A stretch of 35,126 nucleotides of DNA from a virus (Duplodnaviria > Heunggongvirae > Uroviricota > Caudoviricetes): the IMG/VR virus record IMGVR_UViG_2619619134_000012; one strand, 5' to 3'. How positions within the stretch are numbered: position 1 is the first letter of the stretch; every line of letters begins with the position of its first letter. Positions 8,743 through 34,774 of this stretch are shown piece by piece. Below the pieces are notes generated by a model. That model was given only the letters and a program-made list of their open reading frames with translations, had not been told where the DNA came from and ran no database searches. A program made the position numbers and the translations under genes.

Positions 8743-9930
8743 ATGAATACATATACACTAACAAGCTACAGCATAATTTACTCTATTTTGATTCCTTTTA
8801 TTATATACTTTGCACTATCTATTCTCCCTGTTTTTCGCAGACCAATAATAGAAGATGGTCCAGGGAAATATATTTATCTTGACCCATTAAGAGGCCTTGC
8901 TGCAGTTTTTGTATTTATACACCACTCAATAATGATCTACAATTTACATACGATAGGTACTTTTGCACCAGACGGGGCATTTTCTTACGCATCACAAGCA
9001 GTAACTGTCACATATTACCACTTCGGTCAATCATCTGTGATGATTTTCTTCATGATTACTGGTTTCTTATTTTTTGGGAAAATATTAAATTTCGAAAAAA
9101 AATTTATAAGTGACGACTTCTTTTTATCCAGAATAAAAAGATTATTCCCCGCAATGTGTTCTTGCTTTATCCTTTATATTATCGCATGTTTTCTTTTATC
9201 TGACACCACAGCTAATAACAATTATTTAGAACATGTGTTATCTTGGTTTTCATTTGGTTTTATAAATCTACCAAAAGTTTCAAGCAACATAGATGGTTGG
9301 ATGTTAGTTGCGGGAGTTTTTTGGACGTTAGTTATTGAATGGAAATTTTATCTCATCACCCCTTTATTGAGTTCATTAATTAACACCAAAATTAAATCAA
9401 TTTGTTTTATTCTAATTGCATCTTGCATAACAATACAGTTATTTATAAATAATCAATTAACTGAGAAAGAGGCATCCATATATCTCTGTTTTATTAGCGG
9501 ATTTGTTGCAGCCATAGCCAACAAGTATTATAGAGAGAAATTATCAATGTTATTTACAGGATTTATATCAGCATCATTAATTACTTCCATATACGTATAT
9601 TGTTTTTATAATACCATTGGCTCTTATAACTTCCAAGTTACTGGTGCATTATTTTTGCTGTTTATATCAATAGTATCAGGGAATTCTTTTTTTGGAATCC
9701 TAAAAATTAAAGCTCTGCACTGCGCAGGAAAATGTAGTTATAGTGTATATATAATGCATGCTTTAATATTGAATATTATTTTCTTTGTTATGGCAAAACA
9801 ATATGATTATTACGTTTGTTTTTTAGTGGCTTCTGTAACTCTAGGAGTGCTAACCATTCTTAACTACGTGTTTGTAGAAAGAAAATTCATATCAGGAAAG
9901 CAAGAGAAATTAAAGCAAGCAACTATATAA
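8743..9930 (+). CDS. Acyltransferase family 3 integral membrane protein (OafA/Oac-like O-acetyltransferase)
   Basis: 395-aa polytopic membrane protein with acyltransferase-3 signatures (YLDPLRGLAAVFVFIHH; FFMITGFLFFGK; WTLVIEWKFY); strongly AT-rich; opposite strand to the flanking tail genes; occupies the P2 Z/fun position between G and FI. Confidence 0.8.
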   Translation: MNTYTLTSYSIIYSILIPFIIYFALSILPVFRRPIIEDGPGKYIYLDPLRGLAAVFVFIHHSIMIYNLHTIGTFAPDGAFSYASQAVTVTYYHFGQSSVMIFFMITGFLFFGKILNFEKKFISDDFFLSRIKRLFPAMCSCFILYIIACFLLSDTTANNNYLEHVLSWFSFGFINLPKVSSNIDGWMLVAGVFWTLVIEWKFYLITPLLSSLINTKIKSICFILIASCITIQLFINNQLTEKEASIYLCFISGFVAAIANKYYREKLSMLFTGFISASLITSIYVYCFYNTIGSYNFQVTGALFLLFISIVSGNSFFGILKIKALHCAGKCSYSVYIMHALILNIIFFVMAKQYDYYVCFLVASVTLGVLTILNYVFVERKFISGKQEKLKQATI

Positions 9931-9977: not shown

Positions 9978-10409
9978 TCAAATCGGCAATGGCGGCCAGT
10001 AAAATTCAGGCGCAATAGCTGTTTCTACCGGGATAGCCTTAACATCCCGTTTGTAAAGCATCCATTCAGAGAGACTTTTTTTGTTGCCATCACTGATATC
10101 ACCTAACATCAATTCTGTGCGCCAGTCCGCAGTAATACTGTCGGCATATGCCAATAACTCAGCACGACGCGCTTCTGCCGCAGCTATCAGTTCCTCATGT
10201 GTTGGTGGAGTCGGATCGCTCCAGACAGGCAGACCATCCTCACCTGCAATACGAATTTTATCAGGTGGAGACTGAAGAAATGTCTCATAAACATCATCAC
10301 TGATTTCTATGCCATCATCAGGCCAGGAGCCAGCCTGTTCGTAGACTTCCTTAAGTGATAACGGATAAAAAGCATTGTTTTTAGGACCGTATATATAATT
10401 ATTCATCAT
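9978..10409 (-). CDS. G: Tail fibre assembly chaperone
   Basis: 143-aa ORF immediately downstream of the tail fibre gene with a 1-nt overlap, at the P2 gpG position. Confidence 0.75.
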   Translation of the reverse strand: MMNNYIYGPKNNAFYPLSLKEVYEQAGSWPDDGIEISDDVYETFLQSPPDKIRIAGEDGLPVWSDPTPPTHEELIAAAEARRAELLAYADSITADWRTELMLGDISDGNKKSLSEWMLYKRDVKAIPVETAIAPEFYWPPLPI

Positions 10410-12139
10410 TAATATCCAATCGCTATCCAGCGGAAGTTGAAGGTTCCAGTAGATTCAGAACAACGTAATTTGAATGAACTGCTGTTTATCGGAGATGCTG
10501 CTGCGGCTGGTACAACTATCGAACCATTATCAAATACTGCTGATATTGACACCATTTTATTTGCAAAAGCGATGGGAAGATTGACAGTTGTCCCACTTCC
10601 TGACGCTCCACCTGATGCTGCTGCATCATATCCCCATTGCACAATGAACCCATCAGGACCTTTCCTCCACCCCCGGTCAATCCCTGAATATGACCAGCTA
10701 CTCATATCAGGAACCTGCCCTGAACCTGTACCCACATCTCTACTCGCCGCGGTGCCCACAGCCGAGATGTTGACCTTGGTTGCCAGTCCATTGTTGAGAT
10801 CAGTTTGAGTTAATTGCGGGTACCATGGACTCCATTTGGTGTTGGTTTTATCTAACGAAACCCTGATCCAAATATGTCCACCTGTTGTCAGATAAACTTG
10901 TAATCCGTTATATGCCGCAGGAAGAACCAGAAGAGTACCATCATCCTGTTCAGGATAATTTTTCCCTGAAGTGGCGCTGACTGCCACCTCCTGTCCATAA
11001 ATACCAAATGCATCGTCTCCTCCCAGCGCATTGAGGTTTACTGATGCCGGAAGGTATTGTCCTTTAATCAGGAATGCTTTTTCCAGACCAAGGTATTGTA
11101 GAAGGGCAGACACGCTTTTCCCGCTGAGGTTAGTCAAAGTGGCATCAAGGGGCTGTTTTCCCGCCAGCGCGTTCATCACTGTTGTCGCAAAGTTAGGATC
11201 ATTCCCCAGCGCAGCTGCCAGTTCATTCAGTGTGTCCAGCGCCTCCGGCGATGAACCAACCAGCCCAGCAATAGCTGCCTTCACAAATGCTGTAGTGGCA
11301 ATCTGCGTATTGTTCACAGTCTGCGCCGCAGTCGGAGCCGTTGGCGTTCCGGTCAGGGCCGGGCTTGCCAGTGGTGCTTTCAGTGCCAGCGCATTGTTAA
11401 TGGTGGTACTGAAATTCGGGTCATTATTGATAGCTGCCGCAATTTCTTTCAGCGTATCCAGCGTTGCCGGTGCGCCACCAATCAGGGCAAGAATAGCAGC
11501 CTGCACAAAGGCCGTGTTTGCAAGCTGCATGGAATTATTGCCTGCCACCGCCGTCGGCGCTTTTGGCGTACCGGTAAGTGTCGGACTGTCTTTTGGTGCA
11601 TACTGCGAATGAGGATCAACAGCAGCAAGATGCTTTGCCATCAGGTCATCCACATACACCTTAAGCTCCAACACCTTGTCATCCACATATTTGCGAGTTG
11701 CCAGCACCACTGCAGGGTCTATTTTCAGGGTGATGTTATCGGTGCTGCTGGTAATCAGTACCATACGCACGGTCTGCGTACGTCCGCTGCCCTCCGCCAG
11801 CTTCGGCTTGTAGCTCTCCGGGCAGTTTCCCACAGCGATCAGTGCTCCGGTTTCATCAAAAAGGCCGACTTCACGAATCCACCACCCACCCTCATTTTCC
11901 GGGATCACCTGCTCAGCAATAATCTGGCTGCTGTTCTGCGGGTCGATATACAGCATATTCAGCGCTGCGCGGCGCTCCTCTGTAACTAATGCGGTCTGTT
12001 GCGCGTTGGGTGTGGGCAGCGCACCGCCACCGCTACCCACCGCCATATGGGTAATTTTAAGCGGGACACCGAGCGCGGCGGCGCTTGCCAGTTTCGCCGC
12101 GCCGATATCCGTCAGCAGGGTGTAAAATTTTGCGCTCAT
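10409..12139 (-). CDS. H: Tail fibre protein
   Basis: 576-aa ORF with a P2 gpH-like N-terminus (MSAKFYTLLTDIGAAKLASAAALGVPLKITHMAVGSGG...) and internal tandem collar-like repeats. Confidence 0.85.
   Translation of the reverse strand: MSAKFYTLLTDIGAAKLASAAALGVPLKITHMAVGSGGGALPTPNAQQTALVTEERRAALNMLYIDPQNSSQIIAEQVIPENEGGWWIREVGLFDETGALIAVGNCPESYKPKLAEGSGRTQTVRMVLITSSTDNITLKIDPAVVLATRKYVDDKVLELKVYVDDLMAKHLAAVDPHSQYAPKDSPTLTGTPKAPTAVAGNNSMQLANTAFVQAAILALIGGAPATLDTLKEIAAAINNDPNFSTTINNALALKAPLASPALTGTPTAPTAAQTVNNTQIATTAFVKAAIAGLVGSSPEALDTLNELAAALGNDPNFATTVMNALAGKQPLDATLTNLSGKSVSALLQYLGLEKAFLIKGQYLPASVNLNALGGDDAFGIYGQEVAVSATSGKNYPEQDDGTLLVLPAAYNGLQVYLTTGGHIWIRVSLDKTNTKWSPWYPQLTQTDLNNGLATKVNISAVGTAASRDVGTGSGQVPDMSSWSYSGIDRGWRKGPDGFIVQWGYDAAASGGASGSGTTVNLPIAFANKMVSISAVFDNGSIVVPAAAASPINSSSFKLRCSESTGTFNFRWIAIGY
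11153..11587 (-). repeat. Internal tandem duplication in the tail fibre gene (two units of about 70 aa)
   Basis: Residues about 185-254 (SPTLTGTPKAPTAV...DPNFSTTINNALALK) and 259-329 (SPALTGTPTAPTAA...DPNFATTVMNALAGK) are clearly related. Confidence 0.6.
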
Positions 12140-12741
12140 GGGTTCACTCTCATCGTGTCAATAACATGGACCGCCCCGCCCTCATAAGCGGTGCCGCCGG
12201 AAATAATGGTTTCGTTGATATACGGGTAGATCGTGATTTCTTCGCCGGTGTAGGTGGCTGCACTCACAAAATACGGGCCGCCAGTCTGCAGGTTGATGGA
12301 CATACCAACCAGATGACGGCTGCATGGTTTGGCATCACCGATCAGGCGCTCCAGCTCCAGATAGGTTTCTTCTGTTATGCCCTGGTCCTGCACGCCAATA
12401 TCCAGACGGAACGTCCCCGGCGTTTCGCCGGTCTGCCACCACTCAATGATGCGGATCAGGAAGCCAAACGGCTCCACCACACGCCGCACGGCACTGGTTG
12501 TCCCCTTGTGCTGATGGATATAAAAAGCGTCCTGCACAACGCGGCGCTTGACGCTTTCTGTCCAGCTCTCATCCCAACGGTCAACAGAAAACGCCCAGGC
12601 CAGATAGGGCAGGAATCTAATCGGACAGGTTGCCGGATTCCACAAATCACGCAGCGATACCTGCAGATCGGAAATCCCGCTGCAGGTCTGCGCCAGTCTG
12701 CGCTCAAGCGGCGACGAACCCGGCGGCAACAGACTATTCAT
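12136..12741 (-). CDS. I: Baseplate assembly protein I
   Basis: Start placed at internal ATG 12741 (MNSLLPPGSSPLERRLAQT...), which gives an 8-nt overlap with J; the longer track ORF (to 12888) would run deep into J. Confidence 0.75.
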   Translation of the reverse strand: MNSLLPPGSSPLERRLAQTCSGISDLQVSLRDLWNPATCPIRFLPYLAWAFSVDRWDESWTESVKRRVVQDAFYIHQHKGTTSAVRRVVEPFGFLIRIIEWWQTGETPGTFRLDIGVQDQGITEETYLELERLIGDAKPCSRHLVGMSINLQTGGPYFVSAATYTGEEITIYPYINETIISGGTAYEGGAVHVIDTMRVNP

Positions 12742-13642
12742 CTGTGCCCCCGTTGGTGACGCTCCACTCTGTACAGGACGCCGCCTGCGTCTTATCCAGC
12801 ACCACATCCTCCAGCGGGGACGCCAGTTCCACACGCTGGACGCCCTCCACATGCAACGCGGCATAAATGGCGCTGCGGCGGATATCACGTCCCAGCCGCG
12901 TCTGACTGGCGATGTATTTCTGCAGGCTGGCTTTTGCTTCTGCCATCACAGGCTCAGCCTCCGGCCCCGGATAAAGGAAGATCGTCGCATCCACGCTGTA
13001 CGGAATAATTTCAGCGCTGCGCACCGTCAGGCGGTCTGCCACCGGGCGAACCTTTTCACTGTTAAGCGCCTGCTCAACCACTGCCAGCAGGTCAGCCCCT
13101 GCTGTACCGTCACCCTCGCGACTCAGTACGGTAAGCACCACCTCTGCCGGTGCAGGACTGGTTGCGCTGGCATCAGCCACGCGCCCGTCCGCGCTTTTAG
13201 CGTGAAACTCGTAGGCCGCCGTCGGTCCCGCAACGGACAATCCCTCAAACGCAGCCGGAACACGCAGGCGCAACGCCTCATCGCTTTCCATGACGGCAGC
13301 AACCGGCGGCACCGCGTCGTTATCGGCAGGCGTTACCGTCAGGCGTTTCACGTTGTAGTTGGCTGCCAGCTGATCGAGATCGCCGCCGATGGCATACGCC
13401 ACCATAACCGCCTGCGCGGCCTCGTTAATACGCTGGCGCAGCAGGATTTCGCGGTAGGTGCTTTCCTGCAGCAGCTTGGTGACGGGTTCAGATTCCAGTG
13501 CCAGCGTGCGCCGTACCGCGTCCTGCTCAACCGCCGGATAAAGGGCCACAAATGCGGCCTTGCGCTCAGCCAGCAGCGTCTCAAAATCCGGCACGTCCAC
13601 TATCTGCGGCGCGGGCAACTGGGAAAGGTCAATCACTGCCAT
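12734..13642 (-). CDS. J: Baseplate assembly protein J
   Basis: 302-aa ORF at the P2 gpJ position with a matching length. Confidence 0.85.
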   Translation of the reverse strand: MAVIDLSQLPAPQIVDVPDFETLLAERKAAFVALYPAVEQDAVRRTLALESEPVTKLLQESTYREILLRQRINEAAQAVMVAYAIGGDLDQLAANYNVKRLTVTPADNDAVPPVAAVMESDEALRLRVPAAFEGLSVAGPTAAYEFHAKSADGRVADASATSPAPAEVVLTVLSREGDGTAGADLLAVVEQALNSEKVRPVADRLTVRSAEIIPYSVDATIFLYPGPEAEPVMAEAKASLQKYIASQTRLGRDIRRSAIYAALHVEGVQRVELASPLEDVVLDKTQAASCTEWSVTNGGTDE

Positions 13643-20582: not shown

Positions 20583-22349
20583 ATGAACACGACACTGATC
20601 CCCGCAGACCTCGATCCCCGTCGGCAGGCCATGCTGCTGTACTTTCAGGGATACCGCGTAGCCCGCATTGCTGAAATGCTGGGCGAGAAAGTTGCAACCG
20701 TTCACAGCTGGAAGAAGCGCGACAAGTGGGGCGACTATGGGCCGCTGGATCAGATGCAGCTCACCACCGCCGCACGTTACTGCCAGCTCATTATGAAGGA
20801 GCAGAAAGAAGGGAAAGACTTCAAGGAAATTGACCTGCTGGCGCGCCAGTCAGAGCGCCACGCCCGGATCGGTAAATTTAACGATGGCGGGAACGAAGCA
20901 GACTTAAACCCGAACGTTGCCAACCGTAACAAAGGGCCGCGCCGCCAGCCCGAAAAGAATGTTTTCACCGATGAACAGACCGAAAAGCTGGAAGAAATCT
21001 TCCGCAACGGCATGTTTGAATATCAGCGCCACTGGTGGCAGGCAGGCGTAAAACACCGCATTCGCAACCTGCTTAAATCACGTCAGATTGGGGCAACATA
21101 CTTTTTTGCCCGCGAAGCGCTGATTGATGCCATCACCACCGGGCGCAACCAGATCTTCCTCTCAGCCAGTAAGGCGCAGGCGCACGTCTTTAAGCAGTAC
21201 ATCATCGACTTTGCAAAAGAGGTGGATGTTGAGCTGAAAGGCGACCCGATGACGCTCAGCAACGGCGCGTGCCTGTACTTCCTCGGCACCAACGCCCGCA
21301 CGGCGCAGAGCTACCACGGCAATCTGTACCTTGATGAATATTTCTGGATACCGAAATTCCAGGAGCTGCGCAAGGTTGCCTCCGGTATGGCCATTCACAA
21401 GAAATGGCGACAAACCTACTTCTCCACGCCGTCCAGCCTGACCCACAGCGCCTATCCGTTCTGGTCCGGCGCGCTGTTTAACCGGGGCCGTGCCAAAGCG
21501 GACAAGGTGGATATTGACCTGACCCACAGCAACCTTGCGCGCGGCCTGCTCTGCCCTGACGGACAGTACCGCCAGATCGTCACCGTGGAGGATGCGGTGC
21601 GCGGCGGCTGTAACTTGTTCGACCTCGACCAGCTGCGCATGGAGTACAGCCCGGACGAATACCAGAACCTGCTGATGTGCGAATTTATTGACGATCTGGC
21701 GTCAGTATTCCCGCTCAGCGAACTGCAGGCGTGCATGGTGGACAGCTGGGAAGTCTGGACCGATTTTCATGCTCTGGCGCTGCGCCCGTTTGGCTGGCGC
21801 GAAGTCTGGATCGGATACGACCCGGCGAAAGGCACGCAGAACGGTGACAGCGCCGGGTGCGTGGTGGTGGCACCGCCAACCGTGCCAGGCGGCAAGTTCC
21901 GCATTCTGGAGCGACACCAGTGGCGCGGGATGGACTTCCGCGCCCAGGCTGACGCCATTAAAAAACTGACACAGCAGTACAACGTGACCTATATCGGCAT
22001 CGACTCGACCGGCGTCGGTCACGGTGTCTACGAGAACGTGAAAGCGTTCTTTCCTGCCGTGCGGGAGTTTGTCTACAACCCCAACGTCAAAAACGCCCTG
22101 GTGCTCAAGGCCTACGACATCATCAGCCACCGCCGTCTGGAGTTTGACGCCGGGCATACCGACATTGCGCAGTCCTTTATGGCTATCCGCCGGGCCACCA
22201 CCGCCAGCGGCAACCGCCCAACCTATGAAGCCAGCCGCAGCGAAGAAGCCAGCCACGCAGATTTGGCCTGGGCAACGATGCACGCACTGTTTAACGAACC
22301 GCTGCAGGGCGAGGCCGCCAATACCAGCAACATTGTGGAGATTTTCTGA
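20583..22349 (+). CDS. P: Terminase large subunit (ATPase plus nuclease)
   Basis: 588-aa ORF with a lambda-gpA-type deviant Walker A candidate KSRQIGAT, Walker B LYLDE and a C-terminal nuclease region (VWIGYDPAKG...IGIDSTGVGHG). Confidence 0.9.
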   Translation: MNTTLIPADLDPRRQAMLLYFQGYRVARIAEMLGEKVATVHSWKKRDKWGDYGPLDQMQLTTAARYCQLIMKEQKEGKDFKEIDLLARQSERHARIGKFNDGGNEADLNPNVANRNKGPRRQPEKNVFTDEQTEKLEEIFRNGMFEYQRHWWQAGVKHRIRNLLKSRQIGATYFFAREALIDAITTGRNQIFLSASKAQAHVFKQYIIDFAKEVDVELKGDPMTLSNGACLYFLGTNARTAQSYHGNLYLDEYFWIPKFQELRKVASGMAIHKKWRQTYFSTPSSLTHSAYPFWSGALFNRGRAKADKVDIDLTHSNLARGLLCPDGQYRQIVTVEDAVRGGCNLFDLDQLRMEYSPDEYQNLLMCEFIDDLASVFPLSELQACMVDSWEVWTDFHALALRPFGWREVWIGYDPAKGTQNGDSAGCVVVAPPTVPGGKFRILERHQWRGMDFRAQADAIKKLTQQYNVTYIGIDSTGVGHGVYENVKAFFPAVREFVYNPNVKNALVLKAYDIISHRRLEFDAGHTDIAQSFMAIRRATTASGNRPTYEASRSEEASHADLAWATMHALFNEPLQGEAANTSNIVEIF

Positions 22350-23074
22350 TGCACTCAACCCCAACTAACCTCATGACCACCGCCAGCCTGCCTGTAGATC
22401 GCCCTTTCTTTGCTTACCAGCATGAATGGAACAGCGGCGCACGCAGCAGAAACCGTGTGCTTACAAAAATGCGTCAGGCTGGCGCAGATTTCTTTTTCGC
22501 CTACGAAGCCCTGAACGATGCACTGCATACCGGACGCAACCAGATTTTTCTGGGCTGCACCCCGGCATCCGCCCTGACAGTCAAAACCTATATGTCAGCC
22601 TTTATAGATCAGGCTGCAGCCTGGACACACCTTGGAAAAATAAAATCAGGCAAAGCGCATCTGGAACTACCAAACGGTGCAGTCATTTATTTTATCGGGC
22701 CGGAAAGCCTCGCCGCCGCGCTCCATGGAAACGTCTACGTGTCAGAGTATGCCTGGGCGGACTCCCCGAAAAATATGATTGCGCTCGCCAAAAGCCTGTC
22801 CATGCACGCGCGCTATCACGCTACCTACTACACCACCCCAAGCCCCAGCCCGGAAGCATGGCGGGAATACAAGAAGCTGATTGCCCGCAACAGCACAACC
22901 AGCATGACCTTTACCGCTGATGACGCTGCAGCATCCGGGGCAACGCTCGCAACCGGAGCCGCGCTCTTTGATGATGAATGGCTGAATGACATGAAAAAAG
23001 AATTATCAGCAGCGGACTGGAGAATGTTGTTTATGTGCGAATGGCCCCAGTTTGACAAGGAGCAGATGGCATGA
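22349..23074 (+). CDS. Terminase-ATPase-domain-only paralogue (truncated, motif-degenerate terminase large-subunit-like protein)
   Basis: 241-aa ORF overlapping the P stop (TGATG) and the Q start (ATGA); aligns by eye with the ATPase core of the adjacent P protein (KMRQAGADFFFAYEALNDALHTGRNQIFL vs KSRQIGATYFFAREALIDAITTGRNQIFL; LFMCEW vs LLMCEF) but lacks the N-terminal and nuclease regions. Confidence 0.7.
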   Translation: MHSTPTNLMTTASLPVDRPFFAYQHEWNSGARSRNRVLTKMRQAGADFFFAYEALNDALHTGRNQIFLGCTPASALTVKTYMSAFIDQAAAWTHLGKIKSGKAHLELPNGAVIYFIGPESLAAALHGNVYVSEYAWADSPKNMIALAKSLSMHARYHATYYTTPSPSPEAWREYKKLIARNSTTSMTFTADDAAASGATLATGAALFDDEWLNDMKKELSAADWRMLFMCEWPQFDKEQMA

Positions 23075-24123
23075 GCAAACGCAAAAACCGGAATAACCGC
23101 GCAGCGGTAGATCACAAAGCTAAACCGCACGGTGATGCGGTGGCTGAGGCATTCAGCTTTGGCGACCCGGTGCCGGTGCTGGACCGGCGCGAGCTTCTGG
23201 ACTATGTGGAATGCGTGCAGATGGACCGCTGGTATGAGCCGCCGGTCAGCTTTGACGGGCTGGCGCGAACCTACCGCGCCGCCGTGCACCATAGCTCCCC
23301 GATTGCGGTTAAACGTGACATTCTCAGCAGTACGTACATCCCGCACCGCCTGCTCAGCCAGCAGGCTTTTGCCCGTTTCGTCCAGGATTATCTGGTGTTC
23401 GGTAACGCCTATCTGGAAAAGCGCACCAACCGGCTCGGCGGCGTTCTCTCACTGGAGCCAGCACTGGCGAAGTACACACGCCGTGGCGTGGACCTCGACA
23501 CCTACTGGTTTGTGCAGTACGGCCTGACCACGCAGCCCTATGATTTTACACAGGGCAACATTTTTCACCTGATGGAGCCGGATATTAACCAGGAGATTTA
23601 CGGGCTGCCCGGCTATCTCTCCGCCATTCCGTCAACCTTGCTCAACGAGTCCGCCACGCTGTTCCGCCGGAAGTATTACATCAACGGCAGCCACGCGGGT
23701 TTCATCATGTACATGACCGACGCAGCACAGAACCAGGAGGATGTGAACAATATCCGCCAGGCAATGAAAAGCGCCAAAGGACCTGGTAACTTCCGTAACC
23801 TGTTTATGTATTCACCCAACGGTAAAAAGGACGGCATCCAGATCATCCCGTTATCGGAGGTTGCTGCAAAGGATGAGTTTCTGAACATCAAGAACGTCAG
23901 CCGCGATGACATGATGGCAGCGCACCGCGTACCGCCACAGATGATGGGTATTATTCCCAACAATACCGGCGGCTTTGGTGATGTGGAAAAGGCCAGCCGT
24001 GTCTTTGTTCGCAACGAGCTGATGCCGCTGCAGAAGCGACTGCAGGAGCTTAACGACTGGCTGGGCGAAGAAGTGATCCGCTTTGAGCCTTACGACCTGG
24101 GTTTAAAAAGCAAGCGCAACTAA
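23071..24123 (+). CDS. Q: Portal protein
   Basis: 350-aa ORF with clear P2 gpQ similarity (FGDPVPVLDRRELLDYVEC...WYEPPVSFDGLA...AVHHSSPI...); AAGGAG ribosome-binding site. Confidence 0.9.
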   Translation: MSKRKNRNNRAAVDHKAKPHGDAVAEAFSFGDPVPVLDRRELLDYVECVQMDRWYEPPVSFDGLARTYRAAVHHSSPIAVKRDILSSTYIPHRLLSQQAFARFVQDYLVFGNAYLEKRTNRLGGVLSLEPALAKYTRRGVDLDTYWFVQYGLTTQPYDFTQGNIFHLMEPDINQEIYGLPGYLSAIPSTLLNESATLFRRKYYINGSHAGFIMYMTDAAQNQEDVNNIRQAMKSAKGPGNFRNLFMYSPNGKKDGIQIIPLSEVAAKDEFLNIKNVSRDDMMAAHRVPPQMMGIIPNNTGGFGDVEKASRVFVRNELMPLQKRLQELNDWLGEEVIRFEPYDLGLKSKRN

Positions 24124-27816: not shown

Positions 27817-28761
27817 TTAAGGCGTTTCCGTAGGTTCGAATTCGTCCCACTCTGGAGGCAGCCCCATTAACCAAAGGCTCAAGGCCGGATTTAACTGGCC
27901 TCCATTTTCCATCTGTGCATTTGAGCCAGTCAGCATCTTTCCAGAAGCCGTTAACCGGACCGGGCCTGCAATCTGTGCCACCACATCCAGACGATCTGTC
28001 GATATTTTCCCTTTGCGAATCCTCCCCCCAGGATCCCCCCCCCCTTGTGGTCGCTGGCTGTTGGCGTGGGCCAGCCAGCCATTTTTACCTGTTGCGCAAG
28101 GCTGCTGCCGGACATGCCCTCGGTAATCCCTCGCCCTCCCCGCCTGCTGTCGCTGGCACTCGGAGTTGTCCAGCCCGAAAGCTGCGCAGCTGTCTGCAAG
28201 TTCAATCCTCCCTGACGGCCCGCGTTGCTGGGATGCTTCCAGGCATTCGCTGTTGGTGTGGACCACCCAATAAGTTCTGTCCCGGATGTTCGGGGCACCG
28301 ACGCTCGCAGCCGGAAACGCACTCGCCCCGAAGGCATAACCCAAGGCTTCCACGTCAGTCTGTACAAGGTCGATCCAGTCATTTGCGTCAGCACTTGCAG
28401 ATTGCTCGCCAAAGACAACGACAGGGCGACGCTGCCCGACCAACCAATGCATGGCGGGCCATAAGTGCCGCTCGTCAGCAAACCCTTTTCCTTTGCCTGC
28501 CGCGCTGAAAGGCTGGCATGGGCAGGAACCTGTCCAGACTTCTCTGCTGTCTTCCCAGCCCACACGGCGCAGGGCATATGACCAAATGCCAACCCCTGCA
28601 AAGAAATGGACCTGAGCAAATCCTCGTAAATCATCGGGTCTGACATCTTCAATACTCCTTTCATCTACAACACCCGGCATAATGCGACCGGCAGCCATGT
28701 GTACGCGCAGCCGCGCAGCTGCAAACGGGTCTATCTCGTTGTAATAAGCCCACGCACTCAC
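27817..28761 (-). CDS. DNA (cytosine-5) methyltransferase-like protein; coding frame ambiguous (possible frameshift or phase-variable gene)
   Basis: Frame starting at GTG 28761 carries C5-methyltransferase motifs I ([12 protein letters not shown]), IV ([15 protein letters not shown]), VIII ([13 protein letters not shown]) and a motif IX-like C-terminus ([19 protein letters not shown]); an overlapping second frame and a G10 tract complicate the call. Confidence 0.45.
27951..28664 (-). other. Alternative-frame ORF (237 aa) fully overlapping the methyltransferase-like gene, with three tandem GW[STP]TP[TS]A repeats
   Basis: Open across about 700 nt in a second frame; tandem repeat units start near 28279, 28175 and 28077 (period about 100 nt); passes through the G10 tract. 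Confidence 0.3.
28035..28044. repeat. Homopolymer tract C10 (G10 on the coding strand) inside the methyltransferase-like gene
   Basis: Plus strand ...GGATCCCCCCCCCCTTGTGG...; a second C6 run lies at 28024-28029. Confidence 0.9.
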
Positions 28762-29615
28762 GCCTGCACCTCATACTTAACGCAGCAATCAGGACCGCCA
28801 GCAGGATCAAAACCAATCCAGTGATGAGGTTTAGAAGTAGCGATGATTTCCACGGCGGACTTACCATCACCGGCAGCCACACCCATGCTGCGCTTTGCCG
28901 TCAGCCGATAGCGGGAGAAATTGCGATAAAGAGAACGGGTCAAAGATGTATCACTGTTGGACACAATGACCGGATGACCTTCTGATGAACGACGCTCAAG
29001 AATAGACGCCAGATGATACTGATCATCCTCAGTAAATCCGGCGGTGTGATAACCGGTAAACGTTCCGTCATATGGCGGATCGCAATAAACCACATCACCA
29101 GTCTTCAGCAGTGCCAGTGTTTCCTCATAGCTGGCACAGATAAACGTTGCACGTTGTGCCTTTTCTGCAAAAGCGCGTATTTCGTTTTCGGGGAAGTACG
29201 GATTTTTATAATTACCGTAAGGAACATTAAAGTGACCACTCAAGTTATAGCGGCACAGTCCGCGATAACAATGGCGATTAAGATAAATAAACATGGCTGC
29301 GCGGCAATCCACAGGCCAATCACGTCCATGGTTAAATTCTTTTCGAATATCGTAGTAATCCTCTGCCGATTTATTTTTAGCAAATAAATCCTTGCCAATT
29401 GAGATTAATAATTCAGGTCCGCTTTTAATGGCATTGTAAAGACTTATCAGATCTGGATTAATATCCGCGACAAGATAATGAGGATAGTCTGTCTCCATCA
29501 TCACAGCGCACGAACCCGCGAAAGGCTCAACCAGTCGCGGGCCTGCTGGAAGGTGTTTTTTCAGTTCTGGCATTATGGCGGTTTTATTACCCGCCCATTT
29601 CAGGATGGTGCTCAT
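28758..29615 (-). CDS. DNA adenine (N6) methyltransferase, Dam/D12 class
   Basis: Start at ATG 29615 ([18 protein letters not shown]...); motifs KWAGNK, FAGSCAV and DPPY; stop overlaps the start of the cytosine methyltransferase-like gene. Confidence 0.85.
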
Positions 29616-29839
29616 ACAGCCCCCCCTACGTAATGTTTGCCTTTCAGCTCTGCGATTTCCTGACAGGTGACGCAACACTGCACGCCCGGAATAGCGCGGC
29701 GGCGAGCTGGCGGGATCGGTGCATCGCAATCAATGCAGAGCACACGGGAAACGCCCGGTGTTCTGTTGCGGGCGGTGTGGATGTGGCGCTGACGTTCTTC
29801 TTCAACGCGCTGCTGTACAAGGTCCATTGAATCAGCCAT
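29612..29839 (-). CDS. TraR/DksA-family C4 zinc-finger protein
   Basis: 75 aa with CIDCDAPIP...CCVTCQ, a Cys4 arrangement typical of phage TraR-like proteins. Confidence 0.7.
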   Translation of the reverse strand: MADSMDLVQQRVEEERQRHIHTARNRTPGVSRVLCIDCDAPIPPARRRAIPGVQCCVTCQEIAELKGKHYVGGAV

Positions 29840-32190: not shown

Positions 32191-33216
32191 ATGACCATCA
32201 GAAAACAGCCGAACGGAAAATGGTTGTGCGAGTGTTACCCGAACGGGCGTGACGGTAAGCGCGTGCGCAAGCAATTTGCGACAAAGGGCGAGGCTGTAGC
32301 ATTCGAAAACTTCACCATGGATGAAGTGAACAAAAAGCCGTGGCTGGGTGAAAAGGAAGATCGGCGGCGTTTGTCAGAATTGATTGAGCAGTGGCATTCA
32401 CTTTATGGGCAGACGCTGGCTGACCCCAAACGCCTTATGGCAAAACTCAGCATTATTTGTAATGGCCTTGGTGATCCCATCGCCTCAGAGTTAACCGCAG
32501 GCGATTTTACGAAATACCGGGAAGCACGTCTAAAAGGTGAAGTAAAAAATGAAGATGGCGTGCTTATGTCGCCAGTTAAACCCCGCACGGTAAACCTTGA
32601 GCAACGCAACCTATCCTCTGTTTTTGGCACGCTGAAAAAGCTGGGCCATTGGTCAGCCCCAAACCCGCTAGCCGGTCTGCCAACATTCAAAATTGCCGAA
32701 GGTGAATTGGCGTTCCTAGCCCCGGAAGAAATTAAACGCCTGCTGGATTCCTGTGCTGAATCTCAAAGCCCCAGCTTACTGATGATTGCAAAAGTATGCC
32801 TAGCCACTGGTGCACGATGGAGTGAAGCAGAAAACCTACAAGGACACCAGCTGTCGAAATATCGCATCACCTACACCAAGACCAAAGGCAAGAAAAACAG
32901 AACCGTGCCAATATCACAAGATCTGTATGACGAACTACCCAAGAACAGAGGGAAGTTATTCACGCCATGTAGAAAAGCCTTTGAGCGCGCAGTGAAGCGG
33001 GCCGGAATCGATCTGCCAGAGGGTCAATGTACTCATGTGCTGCGCCATACATTCGCCAGCCATTTTATGATGAACGGCGGAAACATACTGGTGCTGCGCG
33101 ATATTCTAGGCCATGCCGATATAAAAATGACAATGGTATATGCTCACTTTGCACCCGATCACCTCGAAGATGCAGTGACAAAAAACCCGCTTCACAATCT
33201 CAACTGGAAGCGCTAA
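32191..33216 (+). CDS. int: Tyrosine integrase of the prophage
   Basis: 341 aa with the C-terminal catalytic region HVLRHTFASHFMMNGGNILVLRDILGHADIKMTMVYAH; adjacent to the right att repeat. Confidence 0.9.
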   Translation: MTIRKQPNGKWLCECYPNGRDGKRVRKQFATKGEAVAFENFTMDEVNKKPWLGEKEDRRRLSELIEQWHSLYGQTLADPKRLMAKLSIICNGLGDPIASELTAGDFTKYREARLKGEVKNEDGVLMSPVKPRTVNLEQRNLSSVFGTLKKLGHWSAPNPLAGLPTFKIAEGELAFLAPEEIKRLLDSCAESQSPSLLMIAKVCLATGARWSEAENLQGHQLSKYRITYTKTKGKKNRTVPISQDLYDELPKNRGKLFTPCRKAFERAVKRAGIDLPEGQCTHVLRHTFASHFMMNGGNILVLRDILGHADIKMTMVYAHFAPDHLEDAVTKNPLHNLNWKR

Positions 33217-33379: not shown

Positions 33380-33412
33380 TTTTTGATATATTGAAGTTCA
33401 GTGAAGTCTATC

Positions 33413-33447
33413 AAGCCCGCATGGAACCAGCCTTGCGGGCTTTTTTA
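33413..33447 (+). terminator. Rho-independent terminator after the displaced ssrA 3' fragment (probably the ancestral ssrA terminator)
   Basis: GCCCGCA ... TGCGGGC stem followed by TTTTTT. Confidence 0.55.
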
Positions 33448-33544
33448 CGTCTATAGTAGTCTACCGAGAATTGCTAGAATCTACTCGTTATGGCACCCTT
33501 TTTGGGACCCAACACAAAGGGTCCAAAACATGAGGGTCCCAAAC

Positions 33545-34774
33545 ATGGCAAAAATCGCTAAGAAGCTCACTGACACTGAAATCAAAAGCACCAAACCTGC
33601 CGAGAAAGAGGTTAACCTTTTTGACGGCGATGGTTTGCTCCTGCGAATCGCCCCCTTAGCGAAGGGAGGAAAGAAAAATTGGTATTTCAGATATGCAGTG
33701 CCTGTGACCAAAAAGCGAACTAAGGTGAGCTTAGGAACCTATCCTCACCTTACACTTGCGAAGGCACGAGCTTTACGTGATGAGTACTTGTCGTTGCTTG
33801 CAAATGGTATAGACCCACAAGTTCATAACACCCACAAAGCCAATGCCCTTAAGGATGCAACGGAACATACATTTCAAGCAGTAGCCAAGAAGTGGCTTGA
33901 TGAGAAAGTCAAAACGTCAGGCATCTCCCAGGATCATGCTAACGACATCTGGCGAAGCCTAGAGAGAAATATCTTTCCAACGTTGGGTGATACCCCCATT
34001 AAGGAGATTCGCCCTAAAATGCTTAAACAGCATTTAGACCCCATAGAAAAACGAGGTGTCCTTGAAACACTTCGCCGCGTCATATCCCGCCTGAATGAAA
34101 TTTTCCGCTATGCAGCAACAGAAGAACTCATAGAATTCAATCCGGCTGACAACCTGGGGCAACGGTTCAGCAAGCCAAAAAAACAGAATATGCCAGCATT
34201 ACCCCCTTCCGAACTCCCCCGCTTCCTGGTTGCTCTAAACAATGCTTCTATCCGTTTAGAAACAAGGCTACTGATTGAGTGGCAACTTCTCACATGGGTT
34301 CGCCCTGGTGAAGCTGTTCGCACAAGATGGTCAGATATTGATATAGAAACCAGCATGTGGAACATCCCGGCGGAGTTTATGAAAATGAAGAAGCCTCACA
34401 AAGTTCCACTGAGCAAAGAATCTTTGCGAGTCTTGGATTCAATGAAAGCCATCAGCGGGCATAGAGAGTGGGTTTTTCCCAGTATCAAAGCTCCACTCAA
34501 TCACATGCATGAACAAACAGCTAATGCGGCTATAATCCGTATGGGCTTCGGAGGTGAGCTTGTAGCTCATGGTATGCGATCAATCGCTAGAACGGCGGCT
34601 GAGGAGTGTGGCAAGTTTAGAACTGATGTCTTAGAAGCCGCCCTTGCCCACTCGAAAAAAGATGAAATAATTGCAGCCTACAATCGTGCAGAGTATCTCA
34701 CAGAACGTGTGGTTCTCATGCAATGGTGGAGTGACTATGTTTCGTCTCAAAAATACAAAGTTATTGCCGCATAA
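33545..34774 (+). CDS. P4/CP4-57-family tyrosine integrase of a second, tandem integrative element
   Basis: Start at MAKIAKKLTDTEIKSTKPAEKEVNLFDGDGLLLRIAPL..., clearly related to E. coli CP4-57 IntA (LTDTEIK, DGDGL, DIWRSLER, HGMRSIA, LAH); sits directly 3' of the ssrA-derived repeat. Confidence 0.85.
   Translation: MAKIAKKLTDTEIKSTKPAEKEVNLFDGDGLLLRIAPLAKGGKKNWYFRYAVPVTKKRTKVSLGTYPHLTLAKARALRDEYLSLLANGIDPQVHNTHKANALKDATEHTFQAVAKKWLDEKVKTSGISQDHANDIWRSLERNIFPTLGDTPIKEIRPKMLKQHLDPIEKRGVLETLRRVISRLNEIFRYAATEELIEFNPADNLGQRFSKPKKQNMPALPPSELPRFLVALNNASIRLETRLLIEWQLLTWVRPGEAVRTRWSDIDIETSMWNIPAEFMKMKKPHKVPLSKESLRVLDSMKAISGHREWVFPSIKAPLNHMHEQTANAAIIRMGFGGELVAHGMRSIARTAAEECGKFRTDVLEAALAHSKKDEIIAAYNRAEYLTERVVLMQWWSDYVSSQKYKVIAA

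Follow-up and report, generated by a model that had tools for sequence, protein, structure and literature searches.

Two tandem copies of a 74-residue module are present in the tail fibre protein encoded in the window, as we call here the whole stretch of 35,126 nucleotides that was analysed. The module has recombined repeatedly among the close relatives of this gene, as can be seen from their copy number, which ranges from one to four, and from the hybrid units that join the copies. In the reading that we consider probable, the repeat would consist of two copies, of the old subtypes A and B, of a tail fibre shaft block that follows the N-terminal domain, by which the fibre is fixed to the baseplate, and precedes a variable, presumably host-binding distal end; these blocks would add length to the shaft, and would be reshuffled by unequal exchange and by exchange of the distal end.

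The gene product can be assigned to the P2 gpH type of tail fibre on account of its PF12571 and PF21882 domains, its flanking genes, and its nearest database protein, a Citrobacter freundii "phage tail-collar fiber domain-containing protein" of equal length and 99% identity; the original prediction, that this is a tail fibre gene, was correct in this respect. The PF12571 match (E 3.8e-63, 212 bits with a cutoff of 23) covers profile positions 1-150 of 150. According to Pfam, the gene is preceded by a Tail_P2_I (P2 gpI) gene and followed by a Caudo_TAP gene, the latter an assembly gene of the lambda-gpK/Tfa type whose start overlaps the stop of the fibre gene. The order baseplate J, I, fibre H and assembly gene G is that of P2-like phages, and is identical in the relatives L001 and L002. 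The window also holds genes for the sheath, tape measure, terminase, portal, gpA replication protein and integrase, and taken together it is a nearly complete P2-like prophage. The features of the fibre gene are listed in Table 1. In addition, 12 nt of the linker are repeated exactly and in the same orientation (11645-11656 and 11678-11689), and a sequence search of the Protein Data Bank weakly matched the distal part to the solved "short tail fiber gp92" (9ZD7). The gpI ORF (12136-12888, minus strand; 250 aa from a GTG) is probably over-extended; its relatives are called with a 201-aa product and the Pfam match begins at residue 54. A plus-strand ORF antisense to the repeat (11031-11612, 193 aa) was dismissed, as it lies wholly within a well-supported gene and comes from the mechanical ORF list only.

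Table 1. Coordinates in the window of the tail fibre gene, its parts and the adjoining assembly gene
Feature	Position	Strand	Basis or remark
Tail fibre gene, 576 aa, P2 gpH type	10409..12139, stop codon included	-	ORF and Pfam
N-terminal baseplate-attachment domain, aa 1-150	11690..12139	-	PF12571 Phage_tail_fib
Linker before the repeat, aa 151-181 (YVDDKVLELKVYVDDLMAKHLAAVDPHSQYA)	11597..11689	-	predicted helical
Repeat unit A, aa 182-255 (PKDSPTLTGTPKAPTA...NNDPNFSTTINNALALKA)	11375..11596	-	internal alignment
Repeat unit B, aa 256-329 (PLASPALTGTPTAPTA...GNDPNFATTVMNALAGKQ)	11153..11374	-	internal alignment
Conserved segment after the repeat, aa 330-352 (PLDATLTNLSGKSVSALLQYLGL)	11084..11152	-	main mosaic junction at its end
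Variable distal part, aa 353-576	10412..11083	-	presumed receptor-binding end
Gp53-like C-terminal domain, aa 495-576	10412-10657	-	PF21882, E 7e-14
Tail fibre assembly (chaperone) gene, 143 aa	9978..10409	-	PF02413 Caudo_TAP, E 1e-24; phrog_188

On the opposite strand, between the fibre assembly and the sheath genes, there is a gene (8743-9930, plus strand) for a 395-aa Acyl_transf_3 protein (PF01757; "O-acetyltransferase" / "O-antigen acetylase" in PHROG), which is absent from this place in L001 and L002; it looks like a cargo gene, adjoining the fibre genes, that could modify the host surface sugar. Elsewhere in the window, an extra ORF of 241 aa (22349-23074, plus strand) lies between the full-length terminase (20583-22349) and portal (23071-24123) genes and overlaps both of them; it gives a partial match to the terminase large subunit (Terminase_6N, 1e-14; positions 123-370 of 374 in phrog_3746). 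The match to Escherichia phage 500465-1 is a single piece that runs through this insert region and covers 97% of the query; Fels-2, SopEPhi and RE2010, which match about 75% of the query in two pieces, are apparently without it. Two adjacent DNA methyltransferase genes (27817-28761 and 28758-29729, minus strand) are located beside the gpA replication gene, one with a partial C-5 cytosine match and the other with a full D12 N6-adenine match. Two tyrosine integrase genes are consecutive (32191-33216 and 33401-34774, plus strand), the first encoding 341 aa at the prophage end and the second 457 aa with an Arm-DNA-binding domain, an arrangement that suggests that a second integrated element abuts the prophage.

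The best internal alignment of the fibre protein sets unit A against unit B without gaps, the two being displaced by exactly 74 aa (222 nt), with 45 of the 74 residues identical (61%) and 54 positives. In a scan of all diagonals of the 576-aa protein this offset was the sole signal (score 108, every other offset 29 or less), and no third copy of the unit was found. A profile of the unit gives two full-length matches spaced by 74 aa, at aa 182-255 and 256-329, with 143 and 140 bits. Each unit begins with a proline/glycine-rich part, P..SP.[LF]TG.P..PT....N..Q.A.TAFV, and ends with a helix-prone part,.P..LDTL.E.A.A...DP.F..T...AL..K. As it comes after the attachment domain and before the variable distal part, the repeat belongs to the fibre shaft. 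The original prediction had already placed two related tandem units in the shaft, and its proposed check, a comparison of the gene with itself, revealed strong similarity at the offset of 74 aa and on no other diagonal; its estimate of about 70 aa per unit has to be raised to 74, and its span of 11153-11587, which corresponds to aa 185-329 on the minus strand, falls 9 nt short of the true start at 11596.

At the DNA level the two units are 62% identical (138/222), and the longest identical run between them is 8 nt; Tandem Repeats Finder does not detect the A-B repeat in the DNA for this reason, and a DNA repeat search returned a single 52-nt patch (11326-11377 and 11548-11599, 73% identity). 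Identity at codon positions 1, 2 and 3 amounts to 73%, 74% and 39%, respectively, a pattern which indicates that the duplication is old and has been maintained at the protein level by selection.

The unit is widespread. When unit B alone was used as query against 1.84 billion cluster representatives (clusters at 50% identity), it matched 27,088 clusters at E <= 1e-3, 7,715 at E <= 1e-10 and 764 at E <= 1e-30. The best 149 proteins contain up to 11 full units each, 74 aa being by far the commonest spacing, and among them the N-terminal half-unit can also stand by itself, repeated up to 21 times; the C-terminal half-unit is found on its own in minor tail proteins of Mycobacterium, Gordonia and Microbacterium phages and in other fibres. 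The unit is also present in fibres of phages that infect Gram-positive bacteria, cyanobacteria or mycobacteria, and it matches numerous whole-protein tail fibre families of PHROG. Among 25 diverse units, the invariant or near-invariant residues include P1, S4, P5, G9, P11, P14, T15, V31, P43, L46, T48, L49, D59 and K73. The unit is not covered by a curated model in Pfam or NCBIfam: aa 151-494 of the window protein have no Pfam match at E <= 0.1, none of the 25 diverse units has a meaningful Pfam family match, and no NCBIfam model matches the unit. A full-text literature search with the motif strings of the unit found no paper.

These results bear on two other explanations of the repeat. A, T, L and N are abundant in the region, and together with the blank result of Tandem Repeats Finder this composition would fit a chance similarity of alanine-/threonine-rich low-complexity sequence; nonetheless, the BLOSUM62 local score of A against B is 224, as compared with 33.8 +/- 6.3 (maximum 73) in 2000 composition-preserving shuffles (z = 30), the alignment is ungapped over 74 residues, and each unit type is separately conserved in hundreds of proteins. 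The shuffle test, the conservation in homologues and the spread over 27,088 clusters refute this explanation, to which we attach practically no weight. It could also be proposed that the units are binding sites, for an assembly chaperone, a baseplate partner or a host surface sugar, and not spacers. We regard this as highly improbable, given that the unit is found with many different distal ends and chaperone types, and that its presence in fibres of phages with Gram-positive, cyanobacterial and mycobacterial hosts is more in keeping with a generic scaffold than with a specific ligand site. Moreover, chaperones of the lambda gpK/Tfa type act on the C-terminal part of the fibres.

As for the structure of the unit, the AlphaFold2 monomer models are unreliable, with a mean pLDDT of 44.5 for the whole protein (25 aligned homologues) and 42.1 for aa 151-360 (121 sequences); in the latter, only the linker (aa 151-181) reaches a pLDDT of 59-75. 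The secondary structures of these two low-pLDDT models agree loosely, and in both an extended N-terminal stretch is predicted for each unit, followed by three helices in the first model and by two to four in the second, which would cover roughly Q.A.TAFV..AI..L, LDTL.E.A.A and F.TT..NALA. The models are monomeric, and the fibre itself should be a trimer. Protein and unit-profile searches of the Protein Data Bank found no solved structure with the whole 74-aa unit, only with half-units: the C-terminal half has matches in Bxb1 gp4 (9D93, E 5e-14) and 80alpha FibU gp68 (6V8I), and the N-terminal half in the phiTE long tail fibre (9CUY) and, as two copies, in cyanophage A4 gp24 (9K09). In the papers on three of these entries the matching parts are not described. 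The part of 80alpha FibU that matches the unit is not visible in the map (PMC7048315), and the model of the A4 fibre is partly based on AlphaFold2 (PMC12002296).

The number of units varies among close relatives. In the best 120 of 8000 or more homologues, a list that favours query-like proteins, two units are present in 96 proteins, three in 22 and four in 2, and the unit starts are nearly all in register, at aa 182, 256, 330 and 404. Because of that preference, a second sample of 80 viral-contig loci was chosen by the N-terminal domain only (aa 1-181, at least 89% identical). It includes 70 complete genes, of which 50 have the A and B units, 11 a single unit, 2 three units, 5 a shortened A of 46 aa with B, and 1 two shortened A units with B; the remaining one is truncated. 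Copy number in related prophages, which the original prediction had proposed to check, therefore varies in register from one to four units.

The shortened A unit consists of unit positions 1-38 joined to 67-74, and it was observed at fibre aa 182-227 in L021, L039, L046, L063, L068 and L083, as a tandem pair in L068, and is followed by a normal B unit. It is devoid of the helix-prone middle of the unit (positions 39-66), and for this reason the 74-aa unit might be viewed as a smaller core with a helical piece inserted.

In the homologues, the first unit is always of type A (...LTGTPKAPTA..GNNS.Q.A.TAFVQAAI.ALIGGAPATLDTLKEIAAAINNDPNFSTTINNALALKA), and the last one is always of type B (...LTGTPTAPTAAQ..NNTQIATTAFVK.AIAGLVGSSPEALDTLNELAAALGNDPNFATTVMNALAGKQ). 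The extra units of the three- and four-unit proteins have a B-like start and an A-like end, always with B at the 5' side and A at the 3' side. The switch from B to A occurs at about unit positions 4-6 (P0005, P0003 and others), 12-18 (P0011), 22-32 (P0010, P0023, L047 and L048) or 45-50 (P0008), so at least four different crossover points are represented. For instance, the extra unit of L001 has a 213-nt exact run in common with unit 1, its first 15 nt being those of unit 3, and represents a recent duplication; in the DNA of L002, the middle unit tracks unit 3 for about 95 nt and thereafter unit 1. The single-unit fibres start as A and end as B, the change from one type to the other being near position 33-36, within the TAFVQAAI patch. 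These hybrid junction units have the polarity predicted for duplication and deletion products, and the B-to-A extra units and the A-to-B single units are the two products expected of unequal crossing-over. An exchange between different fibre genes could be an alternative route to the chimeric units, in place of an exchange within one gene. The one-unit relative L022 is a case of exchange with another fibre gene in which the crossover is within the unit: over its first 543 nt the gene shares 98% identity with the window, and nt 1-105 of its unit are 96% identical to A of the window, but beyond nt 105 of the unit there is a B allele with just 74% identity to that of the window, followed by a different distal end.

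The proposal that the repeats are recombination substrates is supported by the copy-number variation and the chimeras of the relatives, with a caveat for the pair in the window. With 62% DNA identity and no identical run above 8 nt, the similarity of its two copies is insufficient for homologous recombination, and at present the pair is a poor substrate for ordinary events of this kind; further unequal exchange here would thus need microhomology or relaxed recombination. The comparison of units shows that the conserved patches SP.LTG, APTA, TQIATTAFV and LDTL have been used as points of crossover, and in the mechanism that we propose a misaligned exchange between A and B would give rise to the fibres with three or four units, with B-to-A units in the middle, and to the fibres with a single A-to-B unit.

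The distal end of the fibre changes at a different place. In 94 of the 96 two-unit homologues the similarity to the query collapses at aa 343-351, where the conserved PLDATLTNLSGKS...YLGL segment ends, about 20 residues past unit B. The DNA matches in phage and E. coli prophage records end at nt 986-1065 of the gene, and in this DNA-level search no record of the phage or E. coli collections covered the distal 40% of the gene. The repeat is part of the conserved proximal region, the commonest swap junction being placed just beyond the repeat and not inside it. Exchange with other fibre genes, within the unit or just after it, has brought new distal ends to the same proximal part. The mosaic nature of the fibre genes of P2, P1, Mu and lambda is classical knowledge.

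The tail fibre S of phage P1 also has an A-B tandem, with 74-aa units at aa 254-327 and 328-401. This pair shows 82% protein identity (over 165 aa) and 73% DNA identity to that of the window, and its own A and B units are 62% identical in DNA, as in the window; since the A-B pair of P1 is equally diverged, the split between A and B predates the divergence of the P1 and window cassettes. In contrast, the rest of S, a protein of 987 aa, has another N-terminal part and another distal end, so that good alignment is limited to the A-B cassette plus the next 16 or so residues. P2 gpH resembles the window protein in the family of its N-terminal attachment domain, in the gene order I, H, G and in overall design, and is 47% identical to aa 1-354; it differs in that it has one B-type unit only (aa 209-282), another linker ahead of it and an unrelated distal end. 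In the P2 pseudotyping paper, the fusion points in gpH are elsewhere than the repeat. One B-type unit was also found in lambda Stf, in the Stf reading frame of phage DE3, although this siphovirus side fibre has an unrelated N-terminal part and a single unit.

The presence of the B unit and the following segment in the unrelated phages P2, P1 and lambda, the location of the main mosaic junction directly after unit B, and the exchange in L022, which within a unit brings a new distal end, could also be accounted for if the units were conserved adapters for the exchange of distal ends, their number being a neutral by-product without functional effect. We consider this unlikely. The strong conservation of the protein over 27,088 clusters, in spite of a saturated third codon position, argues for a structural role of the protein rather than for DNA homology alone; in addition, the two-unit form dominates (50/70), which suggests that the number of units is not free to drift. 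Under the shaft-block explanation, which we favour, the position and modularity of the unit lead us to infer that, in the trimeric fibre, each unit would add a fixed length to the shaft and the number of units would set the reach of the receptor-binding end.

A further step, which we put forward tentatively and with more doubt than conviction, is that the number of units is a tunable ruler that matches the reach of the fibre to the thickness of the O-antigen or capsule layer of the host. If this were true, the near-identical prophages with one to four units would be a natural test set to relate fibre length to host range.

The repeat is an ordinary feature of a tail fibre, a further instance of the well-known modular and mosaic build of these proteins, and it leaves current views of phage biology as they are. 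It is mildly notable that such a common module has neither a curated family nor a known structure of the whole unit, and that close relatives form a natural series of one to four units. The main use of these results is in annotation, given that they set borders for the attachment domain, for both shaft units, for the conserved junction and for the distal end that can be swapped, and these are the borders that nature uses in the reshuffling of fibres; the unit borders and the YLGL junction are natural fusion points for the construction of chimeric fibres of P2-like phages and tailocins.
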